Shown here piece after piece: positions 2,008 through 18,167 of a stretch of 18,167 nucleotides of DNA. The position numbers were made by a program, and so were the translations under genes. Position 1 is the stretch's first letter, and every line of letters begins with the position of its first letter. A model generated the notes under the pieces. The model was given only the letters and a program-made list of their open reading frames with translations. It made no database searches and was not told where the DNA came from. The stretch is from a virus (taxonomy: Duplodnaviria > Heunggongvirae > Uroviricota > Caudoviricetes). The DNA is taken from the IMG/VR virus record IMGVR_UViG_2657245521_000006; one strand, written 5' to 3'.

Positions 2008-2149
2008 GGTTATTGACACCGGCTGCGATTGGGTAAAACCCATCTACGGCACTGCTCATGATTGGGAAGTGCTGGACAGGCAGACCAAGAAAGACATTCT
2101 TATGCATAACAAAGTGTGGATGTCAAACTGTGGCTCTATAACTTATTGA
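1928..2149 (+). CDS. o-spanin (Rz1-like outer-membrane lipoprotein), overlapped architecture
   Basis: Starts inside the i-spanin in another frame with perfect SD AAGGAG 8 nt upstream; lipobox L-I-A-S-C (Cys18); extends past the i-spanin stop. Confidence 0.65.
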   Translation: MYNRLLTICLMTLLIASCAKTGHVRIEVIDTGCDWVKPIYGTAHDWEVLDRQTKKDILMHNKVWMSNCGSITY

Positions 2150-2799
2150 TTTTGTTTTTTGTTGTCTACCATATCAGGCAATGTGAAGGCATATAGAAGA
2201 AATACTTCGGTGAAACCAATCATTTCTTGAGCATCTTCTTTTGAAAATTCTTCATCAGAATGAACTGCTCCATTGGAATCGATTCGAACTATATGTGCCC
2301 ATTCCCTCATTTGATCTGTAATCAGTCCCTTAGCATGCAACATAGAAATCCGTTTAACCAATTTTTCATCTTTTGAGTCATTTCCCAGTAACTCCCGTGT
2401 AGCAATGTCCAAGACTTTACGGCAAAGCATAACGGATGTGTCGAAACGACAGCGCCCTAAGTTGTCTTTTGCTTCTATGAAAGCCATAGCAGCACGTGGC
2501 GGAGTGTGTTCGGGGGCGTTAAGGAGGGTGGGTTTCGGGATGATATCAATCAACTGGTACTCAGTATTTCCAGGAATGATTACGTTTACATCATTATTTT
2601 GCCTAGATTTTGCACGAGGTAAATAACCACCGGGATTATTCATTTTTACAATAGCAATACCTGATTGAAAACAGCTTCGACAACAAAATGCAATATTAAC
2701 TAAAGGCCCGGCGTTGATACGCAGTTCTGCCCATCCTTCAAGGACAGCATTTTCCCTCAGACAATGTGGGCAAGTGATATCGAAAGTGAGAATTCCCAT
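2143..2799 (-). CDS. Zinc-ribbon plus DUF4145-like helical domain protein (about 218 aa); candidate defence/abortive-infection-type cargo
   Basis: Minus ORF; start taken at ATG 2799-2797 with GGAG 7 nt upstream (MGILTFDITCPHC...); N-terminal CxxC...CCxxC; C-terminal ...HIVRIDSNGAVHSDEEFSKEDAQEMIGFTEVFLLYAF matches my memory of the DUF4145 signature; AT-rich codon usage unlike phage core genes. Confidence 0.7.
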   Translation of the reverse strand: MGILTFDITCPHCLRENAVLEGWAELRINAGPLVNIAFCCRSCFQSGIAIVKMNNPGGYLPRAKSRQNNDVNVIIPGNTEYQLIDIIPKPTLLNAPEHTPPRAAMAFIEAKDNLGRCRFDTSVMLCRKVLDIATRELLGNDSKDEKLVKRISMLHAKGLITDQMREWAHIVRIDSNGAVHSDEEFSKEDAQEMIGFTEVFLLYAFTLPDMVDNKKQNQ

Positions 2800-3479
2800 G
2801 ACTCTACTCCATACATTAAAAGAAATTGAAAATGAATTACACAATGCACAACGACCTGAGTCTACACTCCTTCAACGATATGAAGTATCGAATGAGATTA
2901 AAAAAAAGGAGTTTGTAGTCGCTTTGATCGGTAAACTGATAGAATTGGACCGCCGTCTCTATGTCACATCATTGAAGCCTTAGTTTCAATTTTACCGATT
3001 TATCGCTTAAGGGGTAGGACTTCAACACTACTAAGTGAGCATTGCAGCAGGCATTCAGGGGAATGCTGTGACAGTAGTTAGCTAGGGTAAACCGTTTGCG
3101 CCTGGGGATTTTACTTTGCGACGGAAAATTAAAAAACTATATGATTTCTTATCCCACTAGGATGTCTGCGGACTACTACTGACTGTTTAGGCTATTACGA
3201 GGGGCTCAAACTCAACGTCTGGCATCAACGCAGAACTGAAAAAGTCGCCATGAATGTGGTTACGGTATTTGGTGGGATATAAACGTACCTTCATTTCTAA
3301 GCTTGATAATCACCTTTGTCCGAATTGCCTACGCGATAGTCATGTAGTTTTAGTCATAACCGTTTACCCTATTGATGTCAAGATAAATTGGATAACACTG
3401 ATGAATCGAACCTCTAAATCCTTTGATGGGCCACTCATAGCTGACTGGTTCAAAAAAGTGTTATCAATGGTATGATAAG

Positions 3480-3509
3480 TTGAGATGAAAGGTGTAAATG
3501 AACTATAAT
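3480..3509 (+). promoter_or_regulatory. Candidate sigma70 promoter for the two-gene cargo operon (-35 TTGAGA, 18-nt spacer, -10 TATAAT)
   Basis: TTGAGA at 3480-3485 and TATAAT at 3504-3509, about 35 nt upstream of ATG 3545. Confidence 0.4.
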
Positions 3510-3544
3510 AATTCAACAGTTAATCTGAGAAAAATGGATTATGT

Positions 3545-3814
3545 ATGTCGAATGTAAAAAAAATAGATGCTATAGTTCAAAATTTATTTGAATTCAGAGA
3601 TGCTACAGGTGAACTTACGGATAAAAATATTGTTTTAATACAAAAAATCATAACGAACTTACCTGACTATGCTGGTAAGGATCCATATGAATTTTATTCA
3701 TCATTTTCTGAAGATATTAATGAGTCGCTCAAAGCAATTGCCAATTATCATAAGGCACATGCTAAATACATTAATGCCCTCGATAAATTAGCAGAGCTTA
3801 GGTCGGAGGGGTAA
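3545..3814 (+). CDS. Hypothetical small acidic helical protein (89 aa), first gene of the cargo operon
   Basis: ORF in very AT-rich DNA; followed 2 nt later by the coupled second gene; no family recognised. Confidence 0.6.
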   Translation: MSNVKKIDAIVQNLFEFRDATGELTDKNIVLIQKIITNLPDYAGKDPYEFYSSFSEDINESLKAIANYHKAHAKYINALDKLAELRSEG

Positions 3815-3816
3815 TA

Positions 3817-4194
3817 ATGGCTACGGAAGATATTCAGGCTTTGTTATCTAAAGTTAATGCGTTAAGATTTGAAGATAAAAGAATAGAGAAGGAAACAGGA
3901 GAGATTGAAAATGAAATTCAGGCTCAATTTCTTCGTGATGGTAAAACAAGGAGTACATTAACCATAACATTTATGAGAGGCTTTTTTGGTCTTATCGTTT
4001 TTTCTTTTATATTTGTGATAGTTTATAACTATTGCGCAGTGCAATGGGTACTTCAATTACAAAGCAAAGGGCTCATGGAGGCTTCTAAAAGTATCGCACT
4101 ACTTGAGTTAGATAAGGTGTTATCTATTATGGTTAGTGCGTTAGGAACATCTCTTGGGTTTATAATTGGCTATTATTTTAAAGACAAAAAATAA
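3817..4194 (+). CDS. Hypothetical membrane protein (125 aa; cytoplasmic coiled N-terminus plus two predicted TM helices), second gene of the cargo operon
   Basis: Strong SD GGAGGGG before ATG 3817; hydrophobic segments LTITFMRGFFGLIVFSFIFVIVY and VLSIMVSALGTSLGFIIGYYF; terminator downstream. Confidence 0.65.
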   Translation: MATEDIQALLSKVNALRFEDKRIEKETGEIENEIQAQFLRDGKTRSTLTITFMRGFFGLIVFSFIFVIVYNYCAVQWVLQLQSKGLMEASKSIALLELDKVLSIMVSALGTSLGFIIGYYFKDKK

Positions 4195-4269
4195 ATAATT
4201 TAATTTTACATTGCTATTTATGTTTTGCTTTTAAGATTTTTAACTTTCTAGATGTAGAGTTATTGTTAA

Positions 4270-4297
4270 AGCACTGGTATTTGCCAGTGCTTTTTTA
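4270..4297 (+). terminator. Rho-independent terminator closing the cargo operon
   Basis: Stem AGCACTGG / CCAGTGCT with loop TATTTG, followed by TTTTTT. Confidence 0.55.
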
Positions 4298-4695
4298 TTA
4301 AAATCCGCGGATTAATGACGGCAATCATGAATACTCCTCCAAAGACTGATCCAACGATACGGGTGTATAAGTCACACTTGTTTAATCTGTGATTGATGGC
4401 ACTATAATTTATGTTGCACAACATAAACTGCCGATGGAGGGAATTGAGTGCTGAGCATGTCAGACATAAGTGTGTTGTCGAAGGTCTCCTCAGGCATGGT
4501 TTCTGCATAACGTCGACACTTGAAAGCCTCCATAATGACAATAAAGTATAAGTATTATCATTATTAATTGTCACTTGCCGTTGCGACATGCTTGGGCGGC
4601 GACCGCCTAAGTTCTCTTTATAAATGAGAAGTTCCCGCTAGCGACCGTTTCTGATTCCTTTTTTTCTACTAAGTTTGTATCAAATAAACAGGATA

Positions 4696-5064
4696 ATGCC
4701 GATGCCAGCACGAGCAAAGCGTCCATGCCGGCACAAGGGCTGTGCGGCAGTTACCAACGATGCCAGTGGCTATTGTGATCAACACCGACAGCGGCATGCT
4801 GGTGATGGCTGGCGTAACTACCAGGCAGGAAAGAGCAGGCAGGAACGTGGATATGGGCGGACCTGGGAAATTAAACGGGTGCGTATCCTTCAGCGTGATA
4901 AGTACCTGTGTCAGAACCATCGCCGGCAGAAGATTGCAAAAAAGGCGACCAGCGTTGACCACATCATTCCAAAAGCTCATGGCGGTACTGATGACGATTT
5001 CAATCTTGAGTCGTTGTGCTGGGACTGCCACAGAGCGAAGACGGCAAGAGAGCGTATCCGATGA
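4696..5064 (+). CDS. HNH endonuclease, phage packaging-associated (HK97 gp74-like position)
   Basis: C-terminal HNH motif ...DHIIPKAHGGTDDDFNLESLCWDCHRAK; Cys/His-rich N-terminus; just upstream of terminase genes; start ambiguous between ATG 4696 and 4702 (SD AGGA at 4689-4692 favours 4702). Confidence 0.85.
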   Translation: MPMPARAKRPCRHKGCAAVTNDASGYCDQHRQRHAGDGWRNYQAGKSRQERGYGRTWEIKRVRILQRDKYLCQNHRRQKIAKKATSVDHIIPKAHGGTDDDFNLESLCWDCHRAKTARERIR

Positions 5065-5398
5065 GTTAGACCCATTGCACATATTTTGGTTCACGGCTCT
5101 ATACAATAGCTAACTGCCCAAAATAATGGGGTGGTTCATCGCGCCGCGCCAACCTGCACTGCAGCTATTGTGGGCAGTCAGGGCATAACTCTAGTGCCTG
5201 TCCACATAATGAGAGCTGCGGTCGTCGGCGCAGCCTGAATGATGACTTCCATCTTGATTGATGCCCACACAGGCCAGGGGAAGGGGGGATCAAATCCCTG
5301 ACCCCTTTCGCCTTCCAGGACTGCCGCCTGAAGGACATTTTTGCACGTCATAAATAAGGATCTTTTTTCCGGTAGGTTTCACCTATTAAAGAGGAGTT

Positions 5399-7554: not shown

Positions 7555-7727
7555 TCACTCTTTTAAGTTTTATTATCGGCCTCACCGGAGCCGGGTTAGT
7601 GTCTGCCGGTGCCTGGCTTATTTCACCTGCAGCCGGGCTTATTACTGGCGGTTCAATCTGCCTGCTGTGGTCATTTTTAATCGCGAAATCGATGTCCGCC
7701 AGCGTAATTAAATCAGGGGGTGAATAA
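7548..7727 (+). CDS. Small two-TM membrane protein (59 aa), translationally coupled between terminase and portal; not in the supplied ORF track
   Basis: Hand translation MLITLLSFIIGLTGAGLVSAGAWLISPAAGLITGGSICLLWSFLIAKSMSASVIKSGGE; ATG 7548 overlaps the terminase stop and its TAA overlaps portal ATG 7727 (TAATG). Confidence 0.4.
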   Translation: MLITLLSFIIGLTGAGLVSAGAWLISPAAGLITGGSICLLWSFLIAKSMSASVIKSGGE

Positions 7728-8986
7728 TGTTCATTCCCCAGATGTTTCGGGGTAAATCTCAGTCTGGTGGTGGTTTCTGGCAGGCGATGCTGGGTGGGGT
7801 GAGTTCCAGCCAGAGCAAGGCGGGGATCATTATCACTCCTGAAACCGCACTGGCGTTATCGGCGGTCCGGGCATGCGTAACGCTTCTGGCAGAATCGGTG
7901 GCGCAGTTGCCGTGTGAACTTTACAGGCGAGGCGCTAACGGAGGCCGTGAACGGGCGACTGACCACCCTGTTTATGATCTGATTCATTCCCAGCCCAACA
8001 AAAAAGACACCTCGTTTGAATACTTTGAGCAGCAACAGGGCCTGCTCGGGCTGGAGGGAAATTGCTACTCGATCATCGACAGGGACGGGAAAGGGTATCC
8101 CCGCGAATTAATCCCGGTTAATCCCAAAAAAGTCATCGTCCTGAAAGGGCCTGACGGGATGCCCTATTATGAACTCCCCGAAATTGGCGAAACGTTGCCA
8201 ATGCGCATGATGCATCATGTGAAGGTTTTCTCGCTGGATGGTTATATCGGTAGCTCTCCGATCCAGACGAACGCAGACGTTCTTGGGCTGAACCTGGCCG
8301 TTGAAGAGCATGCTTCTCAGGTTTTTCGCCGTGGCACAACGATGAGCGGCGTTATTGAGCGACCAAAGGAGGCTCCGACAATAAAGAACCAGGAGAAGAT
8401 TGACCAACTTCTTGCTAAATGGACGGATCGTTATTCCGGTATGCGTAATGCCTTTTCTGTCGCATTGCTTCAGGAAGGGATGAGCTACAAACAGCTATCT
8501 CAGGATAATGAGAAAGCGCAGCTGTTGCAGTCCCGCCAGTGGGGCGTGGAGGAAGTTTGCCGACTCTATAAAATCCCGCCTCATATGGTGCAGATGCTGG
8601 CGAAAGCCACAAATAACAACATTGAGCATCAGGGGCTGCAGTTCGTCATGTATACGCTTTTAGCCTGGCTGAAGCGTCATGAAGGCGCATTAATGCGCGA
8701 TCTGCTTTTACCCAGCGAGCGCGGTAGTCTGTACATTGAATTCAATGTATCCGGCCTGCTGCGCGGGGATCAGAAGTCACGCTATGAATCTTATGCGCTG
8801 GGCCGTCAGTGGGGCTGGTTATCGGTTAATGACATTCGCCGCATGGAGAACCTTCCTCCCATCGCCGGAGGGGACAAATACCTGACGCCTCTGAATATGG
8901 TCGACAGTAAACAAATCTTACCTGGCAATAACGCGCCAACAGCTAAACAACTGGCAGAAATCGAAACTATTCTGGCCAGAGCCTGA
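7727..8986 (+). CDS. Portal protein (HK97-family-like)
   Basis: 419 aa directly after terminase; sequence character of HK97-type portals (from memory). Confidence 0.9.
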   Translation: MFIPQMFRGKSQSGGGFWQAMLGGVSSSQSKAGIIITPETALALSAVRACVTLLAESVAQLPCELYRRGANGGRERATDHPVYDLIHSQPNKKDTSFEYFEQQQGLLGLEGNCYSIIDRDGKGYPRELIPVNPKKVIVLKGPDGMPYYELPEIGETLPMRMMHHVKVFSLDGYIGSSPIQTNADVLGLNLAVEEHASQVFRRGTTMSGVIERPKEAPTIKNQEKIDQLLAKWTDRYSGMRNAFSVALLQEGMSYKQLSQDNEKAQLLQSRQWGVEEVCRLYKIPPHMVQMLAKATNNNIEHQGLQFVMYTLLAWLKRHEGALMRDLLLPSERGSLYIEFNVSGLLRGDQKSRYESYALGRQWGWLSVNDIRRMENLPPIAGGDKYLTPLNMVDSKQILPGNNAPTAKQLAEIETILARA

Positions 8987-10019: not shown

Positions 10020-11303
10020 ATGTCACAGATTGAAGAATTACGTCGTCAGCGTGCGGGTATTAATGAGCAGGTACAGGCCCTGGCCACGATTGAAACTACC
10101 GGTGGAACGCTGACAGCGGAGCAGTTAACCGAATTTGCCAGCATGCAGCAGCAGTTCACGGATATCAGCGCCAAAATTGAGCGTCTGGAAGCGGCTGAAC
10201 GTGCTGCGGCGCTTGTTGCCGCACCGGTTAGAGGCACACAGCAGGCTCCTGGTGTCATCGTTAAGGCGGAGCCAAAGCAATATACCGGGGCAGGCATGAC
10301 CCGTCTGGTAATGTCGATTGCAGCAGCGGAGGGTAACATCCAGGAGGCTGCAAAATTTGCGGCGGAAGAACTGAATGACCAGTCTGTCTCGATGGCCATC
10401 AGCACTGCCGCTGCGTCAGGCGGCGTTCTTATTCCGCAAAACCTTCACAGCGAAGTGATTGAGCTACTGCGCGATCGTACCATCGTTCGTAAGCTGGGCG
10501 CGCGCTCCATTCCGCTGCCGAACGGCAATATGGCGCTGCCGCGTCTGGCCGGTGGAGCGACGGCGAACTATACCGGGGAAGGTAAGGATGCGAAAACATC
10601 AGAAGCGCGCTTTGACGATGTGAAACTCACTGCGAAAACCATGATTGCGATGGTGCCCATCTCAAATCAGCTCATTGGCCGCGCAGGTTTTAACGTTGAA
10701 CAACTGGTATTGCAGGATATTCTGACGGCGATTTCTGTTCGCGAAGATAAAGCTTTTCTGCGTGATGATGGTACCGGTGATACGCCGATCGGTATGAAAG
10801 CGCGTGCAACGGAGTGGAATCGCCTTAAACAATGGGCTGGCGCAGATTTATCCCTGAATTCTATTGATGCATACCTGGATGACATCATCCTGATGGCTAT
10901 GGACGGGAACAGCAACATGATCAGCTGCGGCTGGGGCATGTCGAACCGGACCTACATGAAACTGTTCGGGCTGCGCGACGGTAACGGCAACAAGGTTTAC
11001 CCGGAAATGGCCCTGGGGCTGCTGAAGGGATATCCGGTTCAGCGCACCAGCGCTATCCCGGCAAACCTCGGTGACACCGGCAAAGAGTCAGAAATTTACT
11101 TCGCTGACTTCAATGATGTGGTTATCGGTGAAGACGGCAGCATGAAAGTGGCATTCTCTCAGCAAGCCGCCTACCAGGACGGGGACGGCAATATGGTTTC
11201 CGCGTTCTCCCGTAACCAGTCATTGATCCGTGTGGTGACTGAGCACGATATCGGCTTCCGTCATCCGGAAGGTCTTGTACTCGGGACAAAAGTGCTGTTT
11301 TAA
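10020..11303 (+). CDS. Major capsid protein, HK97-fold, with N-terminal coiled-coil delta/scaffold-like domain
   Basis: 427 aa; helical Ala/Glu/Gln-rich N-terminus; position after portal and protease; strong terminator downstream. Confidence 0.9.
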   Translation: MSQIEELRRQRAGINEQVQALATIETTGGTLTAEQLTEFASMQQQFTDISAKIERLEAAERAAALVAAPVRGTQQAPGVIVKAEPKQYTGAGMTRLVMSIAAAEGNIQEAAKFAAEELNDQSVSMAISTAAASGGVLIPQNLHSEVIELLRDRTIVRKLGARSIPLPNGNMALPRLAGGATANYTGEGKDAKTSEARFDDVKLTAKTMIAMVPISNQLIGRAGFNVEQLVLQDILTAISVREDKAFLRDDGTGDTPIGMKARATEWNRLKQWAGADLSLNSIDAYLDDIILMAMDGNSNMISCGWGMSNRTYMKLFGLRDGNGNKVYPEMALGLLKGYPVQRTSAIPANLGDTGKESEIYFADFNDVVIGEDGSMKVAFSQQAAYQDGDGNMVSAFSRNQSLIRVVTEHDIGFRHPEGLVLGTKVLF

Positions 11304-11315
11304 CCGGTCCTGCAC

Positions 11316-11340
11316 GCTGTGCGACCACGGTCGCACAGCG
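11316..11340 (+). repeat. Perfect 12-bp inverted repeat (CGCTGTGCGACC / GGTCGCACAGCG) just after the capsid gene
   Basis: Read directly; lies upstream of the canonical terminator. Confidence 0.6.
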
Positions 11341-11363
11341 TAAAAAGCACGTAATCCCCCAGG

Positions 11364-11388
11364 CCCGCAGCAGCGGGTTTTTTCTTTT
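11364..11388 (+). terminator. Rho-independent terminator after the capsid gene
   Basis: CCCGC-AGCA-GCGGG hairpin followed by TTTTTTCTTTT; next gene has its own SD AGGAG. Confidence 0.7.
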
Positions 11389-11401
11389 CAGGAGCAAAAC
11401 G

Positions 11402-11776
11402 ATGACAACGAAAGCGAAAAAAGAAGCGGCGGCGGCTGCAGCCGTTGATGTGAAAAAGCAGGATGACCTGCCGACGGAACATACGGTGGACGGGGATGGC
11501 GGCCAGAATACTGCCGCTGGTTCAGGTAATGACGGTGTTGATCTGACCGGAAGTGAAACAAACGGGGCCGCGGGCCTGACGGGAGCAGAAGTGATGCGGA
11601 AAGCGGTTTTTTTCCTGGGACCATACCATCGTTATTCACGCGGTGATACGGCCTGTTTTGATGCTGAGTACGCAGAGGAACTGGTTGAACGCCATATCGC
11701 GGTATGGCCAAAAGATGCGAAAAAGGCGATGAGTCCCCGCAAGGGAGCCGATAACCATGATACTGAAATTGGATGA
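11402..11776 (+). CDS. Hypothetical head-module protein (124 aa; Ala/Gly/Asp-rich disordered N-terminus, small C-terminal domain)
   Basis: ORF with SD AGGAG 8 nt upstream; between capsid and connector genes; no family recognised. Confidence 0.5.
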   Translation: MTTKAKKEAAAAAAVDVKKQDDLPTEHTVDGDGGQNTAAGSGNDGVDLTGSETNGAAGLTGAEVMRKAVFFLGPYHRYSRGDTACFDAEYAEELVERHIAVWPKDAKKAMSPRKGADNHDTEIG

Positions 11777-12074
11777 TGTGAAAACCCAGCTCCGTCTGGA
11801 GCCGGAGTTTACGGAGCATGACGACATGCTCCGTAAAATGATGGCGGCTGCGCAGAAGAGTATTGAGCGTGACTACTACTGCAGACTGGTGAGAAGCGAT
11901 GACGAACTGCAGGCGCTACCGGAAGGTGTACGCGGTTTTGTGGCGAATGAAGATATCCAGCTGGCCATGCAGTACCTGGTCGGGGATGCGTATCTGAATG
12001 GTTTCACTGGTCAGTGGCTGGAGACGGATGCCGTCCAGTCTCTTCTTTTCCCGTTGCAGGAGAATACCGTATGA
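11757..12074 (+). CDS. Head-tail connector protein (gp6-like)
   Basis: 105 aa; N-terminus MILKLDDVKTQLRLE... resembles gp6-like connector proteins (memory); gene order. Confidence 0.7.
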   Translation: MILKLDDVKTQLRLEPEFTEHDDMLRKMMAAAQKSIERDYYCRLVRSDDELQALPEGVRGFVANEDIQLAMQYLVGDAYLNGFTGQWLETDAVQSLLFPLQENTV

Positions 12075-12421
12075 GCCTGAAGCCGGAGGAGATGACCTGC
12101 CGCCTTTCGATTGGGTATATGCAATCCGGACGGGGGCCGCTGGGTGAACACCTGCCGGAAAAACTGGTCACGACCGGGAAAGCCTGGGCGAAGCGCGAAC
12201 TGGTGTCAGGCAGAAAGGTTCGCACACTGGATCAGCAGCAGGTTGTTGAAACGTGTCTTTTTACCACTCATCCGAACCTGAATATTGATATCGACTGGAA
12301 AATAACGACGTCTGACCGGGTTTATACCGTTCGTAACGTCGAACGTCTTACTGACCGCATTATCATCACGGGGGAGGCAGACGCACGTCATGATCGAGCT
12401 GGCATTAAAGACATCACTTGA
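12071..12421 (+). CDS. Head closure / head-tail joining protein (HK97 gp7-like)
   Basis: In-frame ATG 12071 overlapping the upstream stop (ATGA); about 116 aa; family assignment from memory. Confidence 0.6.
   Translation: MSLKPEEMTCRLSIGYMQSGRGPLGEHLPEKLVTTGKAWAKRELVSGRKVRTLDQQQVVETCLFTTHPNLNIDIDWKITTSDRVYTVRNVERLTDRIIITGEADARHDRAGIKDIT

Positions 12422-17785: not shown

Positions 17786-18167
<382 letters not shown>

Follow-up and report, generated by a model that had tools for sequence, protein, structure and literature searches.

What occupies a long and apparently noncoding gap between two divergent cargo genes in the late region of a prophage? The window, that is, the whole stretch of 18,167 nucleotides of the caudoviral record IMGVR_UViG_2657245521_000006 analyzed here, belongs to an enterobacterial prophage of the HK97-like or lambdoid kind, of which it represents the late region. 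It carries two holin genes (462-848 and 835-1116), a GH19 endolysin gene (1116-1730), and Rz/Rz1-like genes, followed by a cargo block of low GC content (approximately 2143-4701), an HNH gene (4702-5064), TerS (5399), TerL (5833), and the portal (7727-8986), head, and tail genes. Within the cargo block, the first-pass annotation pointed out about 700 bp of noncoding DNA (2845-3544) and took its length to suggest a small RNA, a regulatory region with multiple operators, or a decayed gene. Only the decayed gene has held, and it accounts for about 47% of the interval (~3139-3470), whereas the small RNA and the multi-operator region have not. The interval is very probably a patchwork of four pieces, namely, the 3′ part of a small gene, here called s61, a spacer, the relic of an HNH gene, and, for the 89-aa gene on its right, a predicted promoter with the leader. 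The whole is commonplace debris of a mosaic phage rather than a novel RNA or regulatory region.

Near-identical copies of this prophage, located by exact-protein look-ups, are found in E. coli, Citrobacter braakii, and C. koseri. These look-ups yielded 19 loci that are 99.5-100% identical across 2100-4700, so alike that the conservation of the spacer and of the pseudogene cannot be judged from them, and a wider scan of genome contigs yielded 7 loci only. The interval is unannotated in the 19 public copies with a single exception, L014. Three otherwise identical copies (L004, L005, and L007; ~10200-12270) are devoid of head genes and pass from the portal region directly to tail protein L or to unrelated genes, an absence which suggests that they are internally deleted, defective prophages.

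The AT-richness of the interval is borne out with respect to the phage backbone (GC content of 0.396 in 2845-3544 vs. 0.507 in the window), not with respect to the flanking cargo genes, which are equally AT-rich (0.41 and 0.32). These flanks are divergent, as had been described, with a DUF4145 gene on the minus strand at the left (2143-2799) and the 89-aa gene on the plus strand at the right (3545-3814). The left limit had been set too far inwards, since the DUF4145 gene starts at ATG 2799 and not at TTG 2844; a GGAG Shine-Dalgarno sequence lies 7 nt upstream of this ATG, and the resulting N-terminus, MGILTFD, aligns with those of 26 homologues. With this start, the annotated gap extends over 745 bp (2800-3544).

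The claim that no open reading frame with a credible start occupies the interval fails at its left end, where 2845-2983 turns out to be the 3′ three-quarters of a conserved gene of 61 codons, s61 (2798-2983, plus strand). DNA similarity among diverged loci fetched with the DUF4145 protein runs for ~150 bp beyond the DUF4145 start, and in four of them (L023-L026) a conserved reading frame of 60-63 aa lies on the strand opposite to DUF4145. Across all the module-bearing loci, this frame measures 59-71 aa. The start codons of the two genes overlap head to head in a CATG palindrome (2797-2800 in the window), and both the s61 frame and this overlap are kept in 11 distinct prophage loci with differing phage contexts. 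The same CATG arrangement is seen in the window, L023-L026, L030, and L075-L082, from Enterobacterales to Alcaligenes. Compared with its closest diverged copy, that of the Leclercia locus L030 (82% amino acid identity), s61 exhibits a dN/dS of 0.11, with 9, 3, and 20 differences at the first, second, and third codon positions, respectively. Moreover, residues 5-53 match phrog_8371 (E 8e-6). A profile search with s61 returned 39 clusters at 90% identity; when 1.84 billion proteins represented at 50% identity were searched, 39 of the representatives matched the profile (E ≤ 0.001), nearly all of 55-75 aa. The AF2 model of the protein consists of three helices (pLDDT 89), for which Foldseek returned no informative structural neighbour. 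In the window, the Shine-Dalgarno sequence of s61 is weak (GAGAA vs. GAGGA in most relatives), and among the public annotations of this prophage the gene appears only in L014 and in the metagenomic record DAM44312.1. Judging from its sequence, 2798-2983 is a real, conserved gene under purifying selection, which is predicted to be translated.

Many contigs are common to the match tables of s61 and DUF4145, and the two genes appear to travel as a two-gene cassette. Apart from the window, the cassette was found in Leclercia (L030), Klebsiella (L075-L077), Yersinia (L078-L079), Alcaligenes (L080), and Morganella (L081-L082). Its site is either the junction of the replication genes with ninB or that of the lysis genes with the packaging genes. 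In all loci with the module, s61 is co-directional with the surrounding phage operon and DUF4145 runs against it. In addition, each of the two genes seems to hold the ribosome-binding site of the other in the window (2786-2812), L023-L026, L030, and L075-L082: the strand opposite to DUF4145 codons 3-5 supplies the GAGGA (GAGAA in the window) located 6-9 nt before the ATG of s61, and that opposite to s61 codons 3-5 supplies the GGAG before the ATG of DUF4145. One of the Klebsiella prophages with the cassette (L075) also encodes a protein of the Acb2/Tad1-hairpin family, an anti-defence sponge family (786-1070), ~1.3 kb upstream of its DUF4145 gene and in the same cargo region.

The pairing is not without exceptions on the side of s61. 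In L031 (1750-1950), s61 is truncated, homology to the window ending at 2905, and in L034 (4800-5002) it bears an in-frame stop at codon 37, DUF4145 being intact in both loci; thus, s61 is dispensable and can be lost. An essential antitoxin was rejected as an identity for s61 because s61 is broken in these two loci while DUF4145 is intact. An HEPN-MNT or other type II toxin-antitoxin system was also considered and set aside, given that s61 has no Pfam, PADLOC, or PDB match, is divergently oriented, and is broken in the same two loci.

Downstream of s61, positions 2984-3140 form a spacer of 157 bp with no detectable homologue, either by sensitive blastn against phages and E. coli genomes or by alignment to the corresponding spacer of L030. 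The alignment with relatives proposed by the first-pass annotation as a search for conserved noncoding blocks disclosed none, as the homology to the nearest diverged relative, L030, extends at 77% identity from position 416 up to 2986, that is, to the end of s61, and stops there. In a local alignment of the two spacers, the shared CAGCAGGCATTCA word is no better than those obtained with shuffled sequences. In L030, a canonical intrinsic terminator (GCCGCCTTCGGGCGG followed by seven T residues; 5187-5235) lies directly 3′ of s61 and is missing in the window. The spacer also contains the hairpin that had been quoted as evidence of inverted repeats, GGCATTC-AGGG-GAATGCC, which was misread by one base: the real right arm is GAATGCT (3050-3067), leaving six Watson-Crick pairs and a G·T pair. 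A stem of this kind is at the chance level, since a hairpin of 6 bp turns up once or more in 62% of the sequences obtained by dinucleotide shuffling of the interval, with best stems of 5.9 bp on average among the shuffles.

Of the alternatives to the patchwork, a regulatory RNA, small or antisense, encoded in the spacer, in the pseudogene region, or in both (2984-3470), and acting for instance on the DUF4145 gene or the 89-aa operon, survives best, and even so we consider it improbable. Weak promoter-like sites are present at 3116-3145 on the plus strand and 3135-3108 on the minus strand, the fold of the whole interval reaches a z-score of -1.8, which is not significant, and any transcription from a DUF4145 promoter must run antisense to s61. 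Against these signals, the spacer itself folds no better than its shuffles (z-scores of -1.5 and -0.7 for the plus and minus strands, respectively, neither significant), the interval contains no intrinsic terminator, nothing beyond 2986 is conserved in L030, and half of the region is already accounted for by the pseudogene. Moreover, the covariance-model scan that had been recommended came out blank: with Rfam 15, the best match across 2600-3750 had an E value of 2.6, all matches were far below the gathering scores, and no family was assigned to the interval at the gathering threshold or even at E ≤ 10. No tRNA was found in the interval either.

Elsewhere in the window, a full-length match to the Hfq-binding sRNA isrC lies at 17925-18047 on the plus strand (150 bits, E 4e-37), just past the genes for the tape measure and the minor tail proteins, and it is the sole Rfam match in the window. 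isrC is a small RNA of Salmonella islands.

The last 74 bp of the interval (3471-3544) may be ascribed to the predicted promoter and leader of the 89-aa gene. A sigma-70-type promoter for the 89-aa/125-aa operon is predicted on the plus strand at 3480-3509 (TTGAGA-18-TATAAT, 11 of 12 consensus positions), ~35 nt upstream of ATG 3545, and a second candidate with an extended -10 element lies at 3449-3476. Among 21 near-identical copies, 3471-3544 contains no variable site. The assertion that the interval must carry the divergent promoters is, thus, sustained for the right-hand gene and not for the DUF4145 gene, for which no convincing sigma-70 site was found on the minus strand in 2800-3200. As a reading of the interval, an elaborate control region whose several operators would serve both divergent cargo genes is very unlikely; the interval is indeed long, AT-rich, and placed between divergent genes, and it holds one strong promoter (3480-3509), but its promoter-like sites number 11 vs. 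a shuffle expectation of 9.3 ± 3.3, its repeats are restricted to short two-copy chance matches, and the DUF4145-s61 cassettes of the relatives border directly on other genes, no such region lying in between.

The operon that would be driven by this promoter comprises the 89-aa gene and a 125-aa gene (3817-4194, plus strand), whose product has a long hydrophobic stretch and may reside in the membrane, and it is followed by a predicted terminator at 4268-4293. These cargo proteins match phrog_21707 and phrog_20796. Relatives of the 125-aa protein (phrog_20796) are encoded in many viral contigs (L036-L074) between Rz and HNH/TerS, a recurrence pointing to a widespread, uncharacterised role, as cargo or accessory gene, at this place. 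A second stretch of ~500 bp with no credible gene, 4195-4701, separates the 125-aa gene from the intact HNH gene. It contains two terminator-like hairpins (4268-4293, mentioned above, and 4590-4612) and a minus-strand reading frame of 107 aa (4266-4589) with a marginal PHROG match only, and sensitive blastn against complete E. coli genomes gave no match for it.

Between the spacer and the promoter, ~3139-3470 on the plus strand appears to be a dead HNH endonuclease gene, full length and collinear with its intact relatives, although heavily decayed. With megablast, neither phages nor complete E. coli genomes matched the interval, and the HNH similarity was found in the sensitive blastn mode only. 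In this mode, the gap produced 15 matches in 28 Gb of E. coli genomes (67-70% identity, E values down to 2e-7), of which 14 coincide with genes annotated as HNH endonucleases and one, H31, with a gene labelled tail tape measure protein, and there was one further match in a Klebsiella phage. The matching HNH gene is located between the lysis genes and TerS in all three loci inspected (L020, L021, and L022), and the pseudogene occupies this same lysis-TerS slot, the intact paralogue of the window lying in the proximal slot (4702-5064). The decayed-gene option, together with the search for pseudogene remnants that had been suggested for it, is upheld by tblastn with 116-aa HNH proteins, which recovered three collinear segments in three frames (residues 13-40, 37-53, and 54-87; E 4e-11), and a multiple DNA alignment with intact HNH genes keeps its collinearity over the full coding length, start and stop codons included.

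In this alignment, the copy of the window shows deletions of 15 nt after 3157 and of 1 nt after 3230, 3280, 3390, and 3441, and at least four stops remain in the corrected frame. The catalytic site VDHIKAKAHGG has become VYPIDVKIN, with loss of the Asp-His pair, and the first CxxC motif (CPNC) is kept while the second is lost. The GC content has a value of 0.41, vs. 0.56-0.58 in the intact genes. The frame-corrected translation has no Pfam HNH match, and the pseudogene call rests on the DNA and tblastn homology and on synteny. Among the 21 near-identical copies, variable sites amount to 21 per kb in the pseudogene vs. 5-9 per kb in the coding cargo, these being small numbers, and their density is the highest within the cargo block (2143-4701). 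The reading frame of 73 aa at 3254-3475 on the plus strand, which had been rightly dismissed as a gene, is the longest open fragment of the pseudogene; its residues KRTFISKLDNHLCPNCLRDSHVVLVITVYPIDVK align to HNH residues 54-87, and it has neither a Pfam match nor a Shine-Dalgarno sequence. That the HNH-like sequence is still functional, through recoding or through a 73-aa protein with a new role, as the open frame and the surviving CPNC might invite one to think, is scarcely credible in view of the four 1-nt deletions, the stops in the ancestral frame, the replaced catalytic residues and lost second CxxC, the lack of a Shine-Dalgarno sequence and of a Pfam match for the 73-aa frame, the top SNP density in the cargo block, and the presence of an intact HNH gene downstream. 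This intact gene (4702-5064, plus strand; Pfam HNH E 9e-13) lies upstream of TerS. A recent tandem duplication of it was ruled out as the source of the relic, the two sharing only 48.5% nucleotide identity.

The region between the lysis genes and HNH/TerS is a cargo hotspot. Thus, L057 is 96% identical to the window across 417-2112; beyond this point, its cargo differs but includes a relative of the 125-aa gene (43% identity), and the HNH gene that comes next is 86.5% identical to 4702-5064; relatives of the 125-aa gene commonly lie just upstream of HNH/TerS. To the four pieces, coordinates, homologies, and selection on s61 observed in this analysis, the simplest history would add an order of recombination events. 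The patchwork would have been left by modular recombination at the lysis-HNH/terminase hotspot of an HK97-like prophage of E. coli and Citrobacter. The starting phage would have been ordered lysis genes, DUF4145, s61, HNH, and TerS, as in L030, and a packaging-proximal block comprising the 89-aa and 125-aa genes, HNH, and TerS would then have recombined in just after the HNH gene of the phage itself. With an intact HNH gene at 4702-5064, the upstream copy would be redundant and could have decayed by frameshifts, stops, and AT-biased substitutions. Whatever its content, the interval lies between the lysis and terminase genes of the late operon and a Q antiterminator is found upstream in L001, so that its plus strand is probably transcribed during lytic growth by late-operon transcription from the lysis genes. 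A long 'noncoding' gap in a prophage resolved into a missed small gene and a relic gene is a useful annotation correction, not a surprising one. A by-product of more interest is a clade of zinc-ribbon/HEPN proteins in lambdoid prophages with an invariant small partner gene arranged head to head, and the s61/DUF4145 cassette is the sole lead worth following.

The 218-aa product of the DUF4145 gene combines a Cys4 zinc ribbon with a domain, DUF4145 (Pfam DUF4145 E 7e-11), that has been placed in the HEPN superfamily (PMC3710099). Residues C10, C13, C40, and C43, as well as R172 and H180, are invariant in 27 homologues, and the AF2 model (pLDDT 84.5) has HEPN proteins as its best Foldseek matches; a sequence search of the PDB retrieved nothing significant for this protein. 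RAZR, or PD-T7-4, is described (PMC13017515) as an abortive-infection RNase encoded by one gene, in which a Cys4 zinc finger accompanies a DUF4145-HEPN domain and which is switched on by the portal or ring proteins of phages. The PADLOC model of PD-T7-4 matches our protein marginally (E 0.0023, 15.5 bits) and in the C-terminal half only; therefore, the protein is named RAZR-like and is not called a member of this family. The orientation of the cassette, with s61 along the phage operon and DUF4145 against it, prompts the idea of a protection of the prophage from its own RNase during induction. Tentatively, s61 might be a dedicated partner of the RAZR-like abortive-infection RNase, locked to it head to head, a proposal that we hold to be rather unlikely. 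If s61 were such a partner, lytic read-through would silence the RNase gene and, at the same time, make s61, which could serve for self-protection by keeping the portal or ring proteins of the phage itself from triggering the RNase. Should s61 modulate the RNase, the cassette would show how a prophage escapes death by its own portal-sensing defence.

The elements of the interval can be set against known phage systems. Morons bring a promoter and a terminator of their own; these cargo cassettes are reportedly inserted between conserved modules. They occur in lambdoid and HK97-like phages. The cargo of the window resembles them in being AT-rich (GC content of 0.32-0.41 vs. 0.51), in the 89-aa/125-aa operon having its own predicted promoter (3480-3509) and terminator (4268-4293), and in that the cargo at this junction varies among close relatives. 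Unlike morons, the block also holds the relic of a backbone gene, HNH, which would speak for module exchange instead of simple insertion. HNH proteins are said to have a role in cos cleavage together with terminase. HNH genes lie next to cos and the terminase genes in HK97-like phages (PMC3592412). The relic agrees with HNH genes of the HK97 gp74 type (PF01844) in its start-to-stop collinearity and in occupying the same slot as the 116-aa HNH genes of E. coli and Klebsiella prophages, and departs from them in its frameshifts, its stops, the loss of its catalytic motif, and its low GC content. The small gene belongs with phrog_8371, a family with no assigned function, for which the obligate head-to-head pairing with DUF4145 genes has been observed in the present analysis. 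Finally, as compared with RAZR in the excerpted description (PMC13017515), the DUF4145 protein shares the two-domain architecture, an N-terminal Cys4 zinc ribbon and a C-terminal HEPN domain, and an equal Arg-His spacing (R172/H180 here vs. R146/H154 in RAZR), whereas the clade found here has a conserved head-to-head s61 and that excerpt mentions no partner gene.
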